NCBI GenBank assembly: GCA_963743915.1
Contig: CAVURN010000005.1
Coordinates: forward strand, 192,001 to 256,000
DNA: 64,000 nucleotides
Direction of reading: 5' to 3'
Source: an uncultured Actinomycetota bacterium
GTDB lineage: Bacteria > Actinomycetota > Actinomycetes > JAHEKZ01
The position numbers were made by a program, and so were the translations under genes. The notes under the pieces were generated by a model that did no database searches, had not been told where the DNA came from, and was given only the letters and a program-made list of their open reading frames with translations. Numbering within the stretch: position 1 is the first letter of the stretch; every line of letters begins with the position of its first letter. Shown here in pieces: positions 32,095-43,333 of this stretch.

Positions 32095-34305
32095 TCAGCG
32101 GCCCACCAGTCGACGGACGGTGTCCACCAGCTGGTTCTGGTCGAACTCGCTCTTGAGCAGGTAGGCGTTCGCGCCGGCGTCCAGACCGGCCCGCTTGTCC
32201 GCCTCGTCCCCCCGGGAGGTCATGATCACCACGGGTACGGACTCCCATCCGCGCGTCCGACGGATCGTCCGGGTCAGGGTGAAGCCGTCCATGCCGGGCA
32301 TCTCGACGTCGGAGAGCACGAGGTCGACGGGATCCCCACCCAGGCGGGCGGCGCCGTCGGCTCCGTCCACTGCCGTCACGACGTCGTAGCCGGCACCTTC
32401 GAGGATCACCCGCTGGAGCTCACGCACGCCGATCGAGTCCTCGACCACCAGCACCCTTGCGCGTCCACCGCCTCGAGAGCCGGCGGCGGCCGGCGACGCC
32501 GGGGCATCGGTTGCACTCTCGACCGGACGCGCCACCGGGGCATCGAGCGCCACGCCGCGCGCGTACTGCTCGATGGCCAGCTCGCGGACGTCGAGCAGCA
32601 GCATGACACTGCCGTCGCTGTCGATGGTGCCCCCGCCGATGAAGGGAGGGCGTCCCAGGAAGCCGCCGAGGTCCTTGACCACGACCTCGAGCTCACCCTC
32701 CAGGGCGTCGACGGCCCAGGCCAGCTGCTCGGAGGCGTTGCCGTAGCGGACGACGACGCCCACCTTCGTCTCCCGCTCGCTGTGCGCGCCGAGGGCCCGG
32801 CCCAGGTCGGCCAACGGGATCGTCGATCCGTGCCGCACGAGGACCGGCGCGCCCGCGACGGTCGATGTCTCGACGTCGCCCAGGCTGATCGTCTCCACGA
32901 CGTTCGTCACGGGGACGGCGTAGCGCTCCTCGCCGAGCCGTGCCACCAGGCACCGCATGACGCCAAGCGTCACCGGGAGGGTCATCACGAAGGTGGTGCC
33001 GACGCCGAACTCGCTCTCGATCTCCACCGTTCCGCCGAGGTCCTCGACCGCCGTGCGGACCACGTCGAGTCCCACGCCCCGTCCGGAGGTGGACGTGACC
33101 TCGTCGCGGGTGCTGAAGCCGGGCTGGAAGAGCACCGAGAAGAGCTGCTGTCCCGTCACCTGGCTGTCCGCGGGAAGCAGCCCACGGTCGATCGCGGAGA
33201 TCCGGAGCGCCTCCTGGTCGATGCCGTGGCCGTCGTCGGCCACCTCGATCACGATCGTCGAGCCGGCAGCTCGGGCCGAGACGGTGACGGTGGCCTGAGG
33301 CGGCTTGCCGGCAGCAGCGCGCACGTCGGGTGCGTCGCAGCCGTGGTCGACCGCATTCGTCACCAGGTGACGAAGGGCGTCCGCCACGCCGTCGAGCACG
33401 CGGGTGTCGAGCTCGACGTCCTCACCGACCAGCCGAAGCCGCACGTCCTTGCCAGTCTCGGTCGCCACCTCACGCACCAGCTGCGGGAACGCGGCCACCA
33501 CCCGACGGACCGGAACCATGGCCAGACCCATGGCGCCGTCGCGCACCTGGGCGAGACGGTTCTGCGCGTCCTCCATCGAGCCGCGCATGTCGCGCACAGC
33601 TGCCTGGAACTGGTCCCCGAGAGCCACCAGGGCGTGGATGTTCTCCGACACCTCTGGCGGAAGGGTGACATCGGTGGCCGTGGCCTGACGCAGCAGTCGC
33701 ACGACGCGGAGGTGCTCGGCCGACATCGCCGTCAGCTCCAGCACTCCACGTTCGACCCGTCGGGTCTCGAGCTCGGCCTCACCGACCACGTCCAGCAGGG
33801 CATGGACCCGGCGGACCGGGACCCGGACCGACTCACCCATCTTCGGCCGGTTGTCGACGGTGTCCGTCTCGGTGTCGTCCTCGACGACCGCAGCCCGCGG
33901 CACCTCGACCGGGTTCTCCCCGTCGAGAGCGCTCCCCAACGCGGACACGAGAGCCGCCAGGTCATCGTCGGCGATCGGACGCTCGGAGCCCGGGAGGCCG
34001 CGGCGGATGCCTTCGGCAGCCGCGAGCAGCAGGTCGACCAGGTCGCGTCGAGGGTCGAACCGGCCGTCCCGCACCGCGCCGAGGAGGTCCTCGGAGAGGT
34101 GGGCGACCTCGACGACACCCTCGAGACCGAGCATGCGTGCCGAACCCTTGACGGTGTGGGCGTCGCGGAAGAGAGCCGCGACCAGCTGCCGCGGCTGCGG
34201 GTGGCCCTCGAGCTTGAGAAGCCCGTCGCAGAGCGAAGCCAGACGGTCCTCGACTTCCTGCCGGAACGTCGCCACCAGCTCCGGGTCGTTGGCCCAGCTG
34301 CTCAT
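32095..34305 (-). CDS. cheA: CheA-receiver hybrid kinase (Hpt, dimerisation, HATPase, CheW, REC)
   Basis: [13 protein letters not shown] (Hpt His), [28 protein letters not shown]-terminal VVEDS/LSDVEMP; start MSSWAND at ATGA overlap. Confidence 0.92.
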
Positions 34306-36042
34306 GCGTCCACCTGCTCTCGATTGTCGTCGGTGGTTTTGAATTGGGCGATGGAGGAGCGACAGGTCGGCGGCGAGGGTGTTCAGCTCGGTCGCGGCGG
34401 CGGCGGCCTGCTTGGAGCCGACCGCGTACTGCCGGGACACATCAGCGACCTGACCCATCGCCGAGACCACCTGCTCCGACGCCGACCTTTGCTGCTGGGT
34501 CGCAATGGAAATCTCCTTGGCCGCAGTGGTCGTCTCATCGACCATCCCAGAGATCTTCTCCAACGCCCCCACCACATCCCGCGCCAACGCCGACCCCGCA
34601 TGCACCTGCCGCGACCCCTCCTCAGAGGCCACGATCGTCGCGTTCGTCTCCGCCTGGATCTGCGTCACGATCGACTGGATCTGCCCCGCCGACTCCTGCG
34701 ACCGCTCCGCCAACTTCCGGATCTCCGCCGCCACCACCGCAAACCCCCGACCATGCTCCCCCGCCCGAGCCGCCTCGATCGCCGCATTCAACGCCAACAA
34801 ATTCGTCTGATCAGCCAACTCATCAATCACCTGCAAAATCCGGCCGATCTCCTGACCCTTCTCCCCCAACCCCAACGCCCGCGACGCAATCACATCCACC
34901 CGAGCCGCGATCTGATCCATCGACTCCACCGACGCCGACACCGCCACCTGACCCTGCTCAGCAAACCCCAACGTCTCCGACGCGAACGCCGCCACCTGCT
35001 CCGCCGTCTCCGCGATCTGCGCCGCCGTCGCCGCCAACTCCTCAATCGTCGCGCTCGTCTCCGCCACCGCCGAGGACTGCTGCGACGCAGCAGCCGCCTG
35101 CTCCCGAGCCGCCACCAACACCTGAGACGCCGCCGCCCCAATCCGCTCCCCACCCGACCGCACCCCAGCCACCAACCCCCGCAACGACCCCAACGTGTGA
35201 TCCAGGGAGCCGGAGAGGGCGAGGATGTATTGGCTGCGCTCGAAGCCGAAGTCTGTTCCCTCGTCGAGGTCGGAGACCTCGACCCGCGCGGTGAGGTCAC
35301 CCTGGGAGGCCGCCTCGAGTGCGACAGACAGCTGGCGCACCTGGTCGACGAGGAGGGCCTGGTCCCAGCCGGTTCCCTCGGCCGTGTCGTAGAGGGTGCG
35401 GCTGACTCCACGGACGATCAGGAAGGCGGCGGGCAGACCGATGCTGAGGGCCACTACAAGGGTGAAGGTCTGCGACCCAGGTGCGGGGAGCCCTCCGACG
35501 GCGATCCACTGGCTGACCGCTGGCAACAGGGCGAGCAGTGCCGCCATCGCCCAGCCCGACGCGTAGACCAGGACCGTGCCGAGGTAGGCCGAGCCGACCA
35601 CGACAGGCAGCCACTCCGCGCTGGTCACGCCCCCCGTCCAGATAGTGGCAAGCGCCACCACGACAACCTGCGCCATGCCCAGCAGGCCGTCCCACCGGTC
35701 CGTTCGGGCGTAGGTGTGGTGCTCCCGGTAGGCGCGGACCGCCAGCAACGACGCGGCAACGGCGATCACCGCTCCGACCGTCCACACCAACCACAGCTGG
35801 GCCTGGATCGGCTCCTTCTCCGCGACGTGCCACAGGAAGCCGATGAGGACGCTGAACGAGACCAGACCCGTGTGCAGAGAGATCGTCTCGCCGACGTTGC
35901 GGCGACTGAAGCTGAGGGAGGCGCCCCCCGCCTTGGTCCGGTCGATCGCGTCCAGGACAGTGCTGACCGACGACTCACTAGACGGCCGTCCGGACGAGAC
36001 TGCACCCGGCGACGGGTCGAGCGGCGCGCTCGTCGTGCTCAC
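34302..36042 (-). CDS. Methyl-accepting chemotaxis protein 1 (multi-TM sensor + ~40-heptad signalling domain); +1 base near 34360
   Basis: [37 protein letters not shown]; removing the extra base gives ...[13 protein letters not shown] overlapping the cheA ATG. Confidence 0.9.
34327..35202 (-). repeat. MCP signalling cassette, copy 1 of 5
   Basis: Near nucleotide-identical to copies at ~36.7, 38.35, 40.03 and 41.76 kb. Confidence 0.95.
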
Positions 36043-36118
36043 TGCTCCTCCTCGAGGCGTGCTGGGCCGCACTGGCTCAGCCCAGGCAGGGACGAGCCAC
36101 ACGGGTTCCTGATGTCAG

Positions 36119-41676: not shown

Positions 41677-41728
41677 TGCCCACGATCTGTCACATCGCGA
41701 TCCGGGTCTTCTCCGGCACCGCTCGCGC

Positions 41729-43333
41729 TCAGACCTTGGAACGCTCCAAGGGGGGTTCGGCGTCGGTGGTTTTGAATTGGGCGATGGAGGAGCGACAGGT
41801 CGGCGGCGAGGGTGTTCAGCTCGGTCGCGGCGGCGGCGGCCTGCTTGGAGCCGACCGCGTACTGCCGGGACACATCAGCGACCTGACCCATCGCCGAGAC
41901 CACCTGCTCCGACGCCGACCTTTGCTGCTGGGTCGCAATGGAAATCTCTTTGGCCGCAGTGGTCGTCTCATCGACCATCCCAGAGATCTTCTCCAACGCC
42001 CCCACCACATCCCGCGCCAACGCCGACCCCGCATGCACCTGCCGCGACCCCTCCTCAGAGGCCACGATCGTCGCGTTCGTCTCCGCCTGGATCTGCGTCA
42101 CGATCGACTGGATCTGCCCCGCCGACTCCTGCGACCGCTCCGCCAACTTCCGGATCTCCGCCGCCACCACCGCAAACCCCCGACCATGCTCCCCCGCCCG
42201 AGCCGCCTCGATCGCCGCATTCAACGCCAACAAATTCGTCTGATCAGCCAACTCATCAATCACCTGCAAAATCCGGCCGATCTCCTGACCCTTCTCCCCC
42301 AACCCCAACGCCCGCGACGCAATCACATCCACCCGAGCCGCGATCTGATCCATCGACTCCACCGACGCCGACACCGCCACCTGACCCTGCTCAGCAAACC
42401 CCAACGTCTCCGACGCGAACGCCGCCACCTGCTCAGCCGTCTCCGCGATCTGCGCCGCCGTCGCCGCCAACTCCTCAATCGTCGCGCTCGTCTCCGCCAC
42501 CGCCGAGGACTGCTGCGACGCAGCAGCCGCCTGCTCCCGAGCCGCCACCAACACCTGAGACGCCGCCGCCCCAATCCGCTCCCCACCCGACCGCACCCCA
42601 GCCACCAACCCCCGCAACGACCCCACGGTTCGGTCGAGTGCGTGACCAAGCTCGTCGAGCTGCTCGGCCCGTGCTCCCACGTCGTCGCGCAGCGTCCAGG
42701 TGTTCGCCTCACGGTGACCGTCAGGTCGCCCTCGGCGGTCTCGACGAGCACGCGGGAGAGCTCCTCCACCCGGCTGCTGACCGCCGCCTCGAGCTGTTCG
42801 GCGGTGAAGCGCTCGGCATACAGGTCCGAGGCATAGAAGTAGACGACACCGACCAGGAAGGTCAGCGTGGCGCCGACGAGCAGACCGGTCTGCCAGTGGT
42901 CGGTCCAGGTGTCGGAGTACCAGCCGGCGATTCCGACCGAGGCACCCACCAGCAGGAGCCCACCGCGCAGCGAGTAGCCCAGCTCCACCGACATCCCCAG
43001 GTAGGGCGCCCACAGGAAAGCGAGAAAGAGGGTCGGCGCCGCCAGCCCGCCGGTGACGGCCACCAGGACGGCGACGAGCAGGATGCTCACGTACGTGGTG
43101 ACGCTCTCCCAGCGCATCGTGTCGACGAGTGACTGCCCCTGGTGAACGGCGCGCACCGCGAGTCCGGTGACCGACAGCGCGTTCGCCAGCAGCAGGCCGA
43201 CCGTGACGGCAGCACCCAGCCGGTGGGCGTCGGTGTCGATCGTCGACCACGCCATCCAGGTCGTCAGGACGGCCGCCAGCAGGACGATCCAGTGCTGGCC
43301 ACTCGACTCGATGCTGTTACGACGGGTGTACAC
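41729..43333 (-). CDS. Methyl-accepting chemotaxis protein 5; indels near 42710 and 41793
   Basis: TM region in ORF 42323..43333, signalling domain in ORF 41316..43250; GAGGAGG RBS; corrected frame ends [15 protein letters not shown]. Confidence 0.85.
41759..42625 (-). repeat. MCP signalling cassette, copy 5 of 5
   Basis: Direct sequence comparison with the other copies. Confidence 0.95.

Follow-up and report, generated by a model that had tools for sequence, protein, structure and literature searches.

The stretch of DNA analysed here (the window: 64,000 nucleotides at 69% G+C, positions 192,001 to 256,000 of contig CAVURN010000005.1 in assembly GCA_963743915.1, from an uncultured Actinomycetota bacterium) carries five chemoreceptor genes of the methyl-accepting chemotaxis protein (MCP) type, arranged in tandem between cheW and cheA on the minus strand. 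We refer to them as c1 to c5, c1 being the copy that adjoins cheA and c5 the copy next to cheW. The 3′ part of all five genes, a block of 855–876 bp that we call the cassette, is nearly the same in every copy, synonymous sites included, whereas the sensor halves that precede it are only 28–40% identical to one another. In related genomes with similar arrays, the cassettes of one genome form a cluster of their own, whereas sensors group with those of their type from other genomes. The near-identity of the cassettes is therefore very probably maintained by recurrent gene conversion among the tandem genes, while the sensors stay old.

All five receptors match PF00015 (MCPsignal; E 1.2e-42 to 3.9e-43). 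Their cassettes lie at 34328–35202 (c1), 36694–37548 (c2), 38351–39226 (c3), 40025–40891 (c4), and 41759–42625 (c5), each on the minus strand, with limits set by the pairwise ends of identity; the c2 cassette is the shortest and differs at the first Leu codon of the LRGLVAG motif, and the tail of c4 diverges earliest, after …AQFK. When the five copies were compared column by column without gaps (anchors at 34361, 36726, 38385, 40046, and 41794), only 2 of 823 consecutive columns were variable, one at offset 155 (C/T/T/C/T in c1 to c5) and one at offset 641 (C/C/C/A/A), and both changes are synonymous. The block contains one further difference, a 1-nt indel. Chance cannot account for identity of this extent among five copies, which collapses to 13–57% in 30-nt windows once the LRGLVAG junction is passed in the upstream direction. 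A first-pass annotation made from the letters alone had described five co-oriented MCP genes with diverged 5′ halves, repeat intervals whose ends agree with ours to within 1 nt, and an abrupt end of identity at (DHTLGS)LRGLVAG, all of which stood. It had also counted three variable internal positions; two of them are the synonymous single-nucleotide polymorphism (SNP) columns, and the third turned out to be the indel.

The near-identity at synonymous sites that had been noted by eye was borne out when the two halves of the genes were analysed separately. Pairs of window cassettes differ by 1–3 synonymous and 0 non-synonymous changes (Nei-Gojobori synonymous divergence, dS, 0.005–0.014; non-synonymous divergence, dN, 0), compared with a proportion of synonymous differences (pS) of 0.45–0.63 in the sensor halves (dS 0.7–1.4, saturated; dN 0.66–1.0). 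The few variable sites form a mosaic: the SNP at cassette position 182 sets c4 and c5 apart, that at position 668 sets c1 and c4 apart, the indel sets c1, c3, and c5 apart, and a further site sets c2 alone apart. Neighbouring pairs of these three or four sites, one of which is possibly a consensus artefact, show all four allele combinations, a pattern that would call for exchanges shorter than the cassette.

Cassettes and sensors within and between genomes

A scan with CheA recovered 79 related loci. The nearest (64–85% CheA identity) are in metagenome-assembled genomes (MAGs) titled Actinomycetes, Actinomycetota, or Sporichthyaceae, and the more distant are in records titled Frankiales, Mycobacteriales, or Nanopelagicales. 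Fourteen of the related loci contain the entire interval from an ftsH-like gene to cheA, and among them the gene order ftsH-like, cheW, receptor(s), cheA, and a response regulator with receiver and GAF domains (REC-GAF) is conserved. The number of receptors between cheW and cheA is one in 11 of the 14, three in L002, four in L006, and three in L007; copy number at the locus therefore spans 1–5, and the window array is the longest seen. We compared the window with the array regions of L002 (5542–9947), L006 (3307–9978), and L007 (5113–9987), in the coordinates of those loci.

Over 822 nt, the cassettes of one genome are 99.6–100% identical at the DNA level in the window, 99.8–100% in L002, 99.3–100% in L006, and 98.8–100% in L007, compared with 80–93% between the four genomes. 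Accordingly, the cassette DNA tree contains one clade per genome (support 100/100 for the window, 100/99 for L002, 98/96 for L006, and 100/99 for L007). The sensor tree is the opposite: c1 joins L002_3 first (100/99), and L006_3 and L007_2 (97/95), L003_1, and c3 after that; c4 groups with L002_1 and L002_2 (100/100); and c2 groups with L006_4 and L007_3 (99/97). Only c5 stands alone among these loci, as an orphan type. Approximately unbiased (AU) tests agree with both trees, as groupings by sensor type were rejected for the cassette DNA in four of four cases (p 2.5e-4 to 8e-104), and groupings by genome were rejected for the sensor proteins in all three tests that finished (p 3e-31, 1e-83, and 5e-101), L007 not being among them. 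Taken together, the dS contrast and the opposite trees indicate that the duplications predate the species and that the cassettes have been rewritten within each genome. Homogenisation by gene conversion, as the first-pass annotation had proposed, is thus supported.

The identical tract ends at the same two places in all four array genomes, one no more than 30 nt upstream of LRGLVAG and the other ~840–860 nt downstream, near the stop codon. The residual differences between cassettes are concentrated in their first 12 nt. Only L002 departs from the common limits, in that its copies 1 and 2 remain 97–100% identical for ~270 nt further into the sensor. This additional stretch (copies at 4813–8182 of that locus) covers the last membrane helix and the putative HAMP, and the N-terminal parts of the two copies are ~53–67% identical; it reflects either a longer conversion tract or a younger duplication. 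As separate observations, L006 and L007 cassettes are 98–100% identical to each other over their final ~250 nt, compared with 78–95% for the 5′ part and flanking genes that are saturated at synonymous sites; the titles of the two records have a name prefix in common, and this shared 3′ third possibly stems from recent exchange or from cross-talk in consensus building. In four more distant loci (L021, L024, L028, and L029; ~9100–9980), the signalling domain of the cheA-adjacent receptor is only 39–48% identical to the window cassette, and a second receptor further upstream carries the usual type (75–77%). Homogenisation does not extend to every array at this locus.

The same pattern was seen in database proteins. 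A search with the cassette listed 120 relatives, and 30 of these, chosen from long contigs, were grouped by equal "longest_contig" value, which gave eight contig groups with at least two receptors each. Within contig groups, the cassettes are 95.6–100% identical (100% in 14 of 19 pairs) and the sensors 26–44%; between contig groups, the cassettes are 79–98% identical. Two further pairs, on short contigs, show the same combination of like cassettes and unlike sensors. The closest relative carries P0004, an intact c5 orthologue of 534 amino acids with a 93% identical sensor, and P0005, a c3 orthologue with an 86% identical sensor half (92% identity over 527 amino acids up to the indel); both carry the same cassette substitutions relative to all five window copies. 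Sensors of the c5 type also occur in P0006, P0021, and P0029 (66–69%). In P0002 (355 amino acids), a cassette 99% identical to that of the window, with a 14-residue tail in frame, is joined to a sensor fragment that has no counterpart among c1 to c5, so even close relatives do not have the same set of sensors.

In the process that we envisage, each receptor would keep its own old sensor module, the remainder being the same in all five, and recurrent gene conversion between the tandem copies would rewrite the 855–876 bp, including their synonymous sites. Conversion would be confined to this block because homology ends abruptly on both sides of it. Unequal crossing-over between the same direct repeats would occasionally add, remove, or reorder receptors, and the result would be that several inputs feed a common signalling surface, which serves a single CheW and a single CheA. 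The anatomy, the dS contrast, the opposite clustering of cassettes and sensors, the conserved tract ends, and the copy-number differences are shown by the data, whereas a RecA-type conversion mechanism, its rate, and any selective benefit of identical cassettes are inferred.

Assembly quality and alternative explanations

It is unlikely that the identity was exaggerated during assembly or polishing, by reads that map to several copies, collapsed repeats, or a mixture of strains, and that the true copies differ by a few percent. In favor of this explanation, the window contains indel errors outside long homopolymers. The gene for SecA (9852–13165, minus strand) is split over four frames (SecA_DEAD/PP_bind, P-loop, P-loop/SW, and SW/SEC-C), with one break near 11130–11160, outside any long homopolymer; given that secA is essential, its split points to consensus indel errors in the assembly. 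A family-5 solute-binding-protein gene (52260–54090, minus strand), part of an oligopeptide-type ABC transporter operon, is likewise split over two frames, and the pieces cover profile positions 1–240 and 262–363, which is likely due to an indel error. Within the array, c5 contains two frame changes within 42683–42710 (26 nt; located by tblastn against the intact P0004), in addition to an extra base in its tail that it shares with c1 and c3.

This extra base is the 1-nt length difference mentioned above. It is found 12 codons before the stop, at 34360–34362 (c1), 38384–38386 (c3), and 41793–41795 (c5) on the minus strand, where c1, c3, and c5 read CTGTCGCTCC and c2 and c4 read CTGTCCTCC, and it shifts the frame of the last 12 codons. 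If the T after the Leu codon is removed, the result is an 11-residue tail exactly as in P0002, P0004, and P0005. The c2/c4 form, which encodes SSSIAQFK, lacks one G relative to the c1/c3/c5 form. The base may be a genuine insertion that a compensating deletion later offset, with conversion spreading both changes; it may equally come from a consensus chimera of two real alleles, belonging to copies or to strains; or it may be a site-specific calling error. It looks like a blend of the allele in the relatives with that of c2 and c4, which is what a mixed pile-up would produce, and this speaks for an assembly effect. Consensus errors do touch the very sites that vary.

As assembled, c1 and cheA form a single open reading frame (ORF) of 1335 amino acids (32095–36102). 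Without the extra base, the c1 stop (34302–34304) overlaps the cheA start codon as ATGA, and in relatives, too, the receptor stop abuts or overlaps the start of cheA. We considered a real MCP-CheA fusion protein and rejected it. MCPsignal is joined to CheA domains in just two of the 120 relatives listed (P0121 and P0122), and both have garbled downstream parts typical of frame errors. In view of this rarity and these garbled parts, the c1-cheA fusion is probably an artefact, and a single indel at overlapping stop and start codons seems to be how MCP-CheA fusions come about.

Several observations argue against an origin of the identity in the assembly. The three other array assemblies are alike, with residual differences of their own (0–10 per 822 nt, clustered at the tract edge), and the pattern recurs at the protein level in the eight contig groups. 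The variable sites of the window have three different distributions among the copies, which shows that the copies were resolved separately, and long reads should easily span an 860-bp repeat that has unique sensors on either side. In relatives, moreover, short-read contigs break inside the cassette: those of the nearest relatives L001, L040, and L023 start inside its last 50–130 nt, as exact repeats would cause in short-read assemblies. We did not take these breaks as proof of a repeat, given that breaks inside cheA are also common among fragmentary MAGs, and they lend weak support only.

Some points nevertheless weigh against gene conversion as the account of this locus. The identity of the copies rests on consensus sequences rather than reads, the frame breaks in secA, the solute-binding-protein gene, and c5 mark that consensus as imperfect, and the extra base of c1, c3, and c5 may be a chimera of the consensus. 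The three array genomes compared at the DNA level have titles in one naming style and may stem from one pipeline, which would allow a pipeline-wide artefact, and the co-location of the grouped database proteins was inferred from a proxy, the equal "longest_contig" value. The mosaic argument draws on only three or four informative sites. Conversion is deduced from the patterns, and repeated unequal crossing-over contributes too, to some degree.

It is quite improbable, however, that unequal crossing-over (array turnover) alone homogenises the cassettes. Copy number at the locus ranges from 1 to 5, and the sensor types differ in order between genomes, the c2 type preceding the c1 type next to cheA in the window and following it in L006 and L007; both features suggest occasional unequal crossing-over besides conversion. 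They also fit the earlier proposal that sensors can be gained or lost by recombination between the repeats, given copy numbers of 1, 3, 4, and 3 in relatives and 5 here, in differing order. Yet crossing-over by itself would turn over whole sensor modules, which are instead old and orthologous across genomes, and it would not supply the short exchanges that the mosaic of variable sites would call for.

We give still less credence to the idea that the receptors are recent whole-gene duplicates, made separately in each genome, whose sensors then diverged fast under positive selection. Sensor dN is indeed high (0.66–1.0), and L002 copies 1 and 2, which share ~270 nt more than other pairs and have sensors 62% identical, may be a younger duplication. 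The sensor halves are, however, also saturated at synonymous sites (pS 0.45–0.63), the sensor types are strongly supported as orthologues across genomes with monophyly by genome rejected, and sensor orthologues in a close relative are 86–93% identical where paralogues are ~30%.

Receptor anatomy and gene neighbourhood

Among the five receptors, c2 was modelled with AlphaFold on an alignment of 86 relatives (mean predicted local distance difference test score, pLDDT, 85.7; 92–98 in the membrane part). The model predicts six membrane helices (4–31, 36–65, 70–94, 105–116, 119–140, and 148–201), the last of which continues as a putative HAMP AS1, then a 16-residue connector, a long helix (218–373), a tip at ~374, and a return helix (375–512). 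The predicted fold therefore comprises a HAMP-like helix-connector-helix and a hairpin of two long antiparallel helices. Its matches in the PDB were a HAMP-Tsr fusion (3zx6, E 3.5e-11), Tm1143 (2ch7), Tsr (1qu7), and the E. coli core unit (8c5v); in this fold search, only the cytoplasmic part was matched and nothing was found for the membrane part. The cassette starts at c2 residue 234, inside the terminal part of the putative HAMP helix AS2, takes in the entire signalling hairpin and a few tail codons, and extends to the stop codon, with ~280 residues from its start to the end of the return helix. Judged by length, it would correspond to the whole signalling domain, of ~40 heptads.

Each sensor module is built from six membrane helices, joined by hardly any loops on the outer side, and continues with the putative HAMP AS1 and the connector, and the five modules in the window follow this common plan. 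Pfam HAMP gave a weak match in c1 only (E 0.033, below cut-off), and no significant Pfam or NCBIfam family was found for the sensor modules. Their Atlas matches were unnamed clusters at 0.91–0.92, with 6TM_PilS, MASE2, and MASE11 as weak leads at 0.86.

The receptors belong to an operon-like row on the minus strand (31054–43899) that also comprises cheW, cheA with a C-terminal receiver domain, and the REC-GAF response regulator gene. The first gene of the row, directly upstream of c5, is cheW (43366–43899, minus strand; Pfam CheW, E 9.6e-30), a position that is kept in relatives (83% identity in L002, 51–71% in others). It makes the locus a complete row of cheW, receptors, and cheA. The longest ORF in the cheW frame (43363–44232) extends back into the ftsH-like gene, and cheW itself sits between that gene and c5. 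Reading on along the minus strand, c5 (~41729–43333) is frame-broken as assembled, over ORFs 42323–43333 and 41316–43250. It is followed by c4 (39964–41598), which is intact at 544 amino acids according to the ORF list and Pfam MCPsignal, and whose stop overlaps the start of c3 by 4 nt. The c3 gene (38336–39967, minus strand) encodes 543 amino acids as assembled, with a frameshifted tail; its in-frame stop would fall at 38347–38349. Next, c2 (36689–38248, minus strand) is intact at 519 amino acids (Pfam MCPsignal, E 2.7e-43), and c1 (34302 to ~36102, minus strand) adjoins cheA, into which it reads on as assembled; conservation with homologues starts near 35967–36003. Between c2 and c1, the interval 36103–36688 is the sole long gap in the array, at ~590–690 nt depending on the true c1 start. 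Neither a receptor relic nor a cheW relic was found in this gap, and the other intergenic gaps gave no relic receptors, the match upstream of c5 being cheW itself.

CheA (32095–34305, minus strand; 736 amino acids) contains Pfam Hpt, HATPase_c, CheW, and Response_reg domains, and the NCBIfam CheA models match it below their cut-offs. The response regulator (31054–32013, minus strand; Pfam Response_reg and GAF_2) is syntenic in relatives, 93–95% identical in L001, L002, and L040, and is the likely output of the pathway. On the basis of Pfam matches, the row is flanked upstream by the ftsH-like gene and a PIG-L family deacetylase gene, and downstream by a flavin reductase gene and a VanW-domain gene. 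The Pfam scan of 61 translations from the window gave neither a CheB nor a CheR domain, and promoter, terminator, Rfam, and tRNA scans of the region or the window gave nothing above background.

Synonymous change in the cassette and comparison with known systems

The array genomes also differ from the single-copy genomes in how fast the cassette changes at four-fold sites. In all six pairs of the four array genomes, the cassettes differ at 0.15–0.38 of these sites, compared with 0.51–0.67 for cheA, the REC-GAF gene, and the ftsH-like gene in the same six pairs, with bootstrap intervals that do not overlap; measured against these genes and the sensor halves, the divergence of the cassette is 2–4 times lower. 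The contrast also holds within single genes: orthologous sensor halves of the array genomes differ at 0.52–0.64 of four-fold sites and the cassette halves of the same genes at 0.14–0.34. In single-copy genomes the effect is mild (0.40–0.60 in sensor halves and 0.29–0.50 in cassette halves), and no such drop in the cassette was seen in pairs of an array and a single-copy genome or of two single-copy genomes. The amino-acid divergence of the cassette is not unusually low (window and L006 ~78% identical, window and L005 ~76%). These comparisons leave hardly any room for purifying selection on protein or RNA alone as the keeper of cassette identity: although no other part of MCPs is as conserved as the signalling domain, and the cassette of single-copy relatives is, as just given, somewhat slower than the sensor, 15–38% of cassette four-fold sites differ between array species and more between other species, so synonymous change is tolerated, and the identity is specific to copies within one genome.

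We examined two further explanations for the low four-fold divergence and rejected both. Horizontal transfer of cassettes between array lineages might be suspected from the cassette DNA tree, which unites the window, L002, L006, and L007 (100/99), contrary to the cheA tree. At the protein level, however, the cassette tree agrees with that of cheA: L003 groups with the window and L002 (100/99), and a grouping of L005, L006, and L007 is not rejected (p 0.375). The signal in the DNA tree is therefore a synonymous-site effect, and transfer is unsupported. GC-biased conversion does not fit either, since G+C at third codon positions (GC3) is 0.72–0.86 in the cassettes, not above the 0.73–0.91 of the sensor halves of the same genes.

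It is conceivable, though we hold it only as a tentative suggestion, that conversion slows between-species synonymous change in the cassette 2–4-fold and that both the extra base in the tail and the in-frame form are real. The tail alleles, if real, may represent a frameshift that has passed from copy to copy and a compensating deletion that is still on its way through the array. The rate signal comes from no more than two independent sister pairs and does not extend to non-synonymous change, which is why we leave the rate effect as a lead. Birky and Walsh are said to have explained slowing in converted repeats in 1992 by conversion biased against new mutations, and Mano and Innan, reportedly in 2008, by more efficient selection under conversion. 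A parallel exists in the plastid inverted repeat, where the converted repeat genes reportedly have a lowered substitution rate (PMC5010901 and PMC4524490) that resembles the low four-fold divergence of the cassette. If the effect is true, plastid-like slowing would act on just one half of a gene in a bacterial chromosome, and the remaining half of the same mRNA would serve as the control.

The arrangement shows how a bacterium can enlarge its inputs while the output surface stays constant, since a signalling module that is rewritten within each genome lets all receptors present the same face to a single CheW and a single CheA. As sensor and cassette are parts of the same genes and transcripts, the locus also offers a natural experiment on the rate effects of conversion and on where its tracts stop. 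There are practical consequences as well. Exact repeats of ~860 bp break short-read assemblies at the locus, and a phylogeny built from MCP signalling domains would report recent duplication for receptors that are actually old.

In its gene content, the locus resembles Wsp-type or "alternative cellular function" pathways, which likewise combine a hybrid CheA-receiver kinase with one CheW, one or more receptors, and a neighbouring regulator that is not CheY-like; one CheA relative, P0168, is labelled "sensor histidine kinase and response regulator Ws" (the string is incomplete). The output of Wsp-type pathways is, however, a REC-GGDEF protein, accompanied by CheB- and CheR-like proteins, whereas here it is probably REC-GAF, and the Pfam scan of the window ORFs found no GGDEF domain, just as it found no CheB or CheR; in this the locus departs from the Wsp type.

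The closest case known to us of identical signalling domains with strongly diverged sensors is that of Tlp2, Tlp3, and Tlp4 in Campylobacter jejuni. The signalling domains of these group A receptors are identical, their sensors are ~30% identical, and their number varies by strain (PMC9769880); Tlp genes are also recombination substrates that bound an invertible chromosome region (PMC6433261). As far as the former text goes, the pattern is explained by duplication and unequal rates, without an explicit test for concerted evolution, and the term "gene conversion" there means only conversion to a pseudogene (PMC9769880). The Campylobacter genes are dispersed and have periplasmic dCache_1 sensors, in contrast to the six-transmembrane sensors and the tandem array in an actinomycete cheW-cheA operon described here. 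A search of the open literature, with limited wording, turned up no study that views the signalling domains of chemoreceptors in terms of concerted evolution.

Repeats that are more alike within a genome than orthologues are between genomes are also seen in rRNA operons and in the plastid inverted repeat. Unlike in those systems, only part of a gene is homogenised here, with the boundary inside a putative HAMP helix and the remainder old and distinct. In the antigenic variation systems pilE/pilS and vlsE, tandem or clustered partial homologues with constant and variable parts exchange segments by conversion, and silent copies diversify the variable part of one expressed gene. The chemoreceptor array differs in that all copies are complete genes and that conversion would homogenise the constant part. 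Set beside these systems, the locus is a very clean case of a known process, the partial concerted evolution of paralogous receptors.

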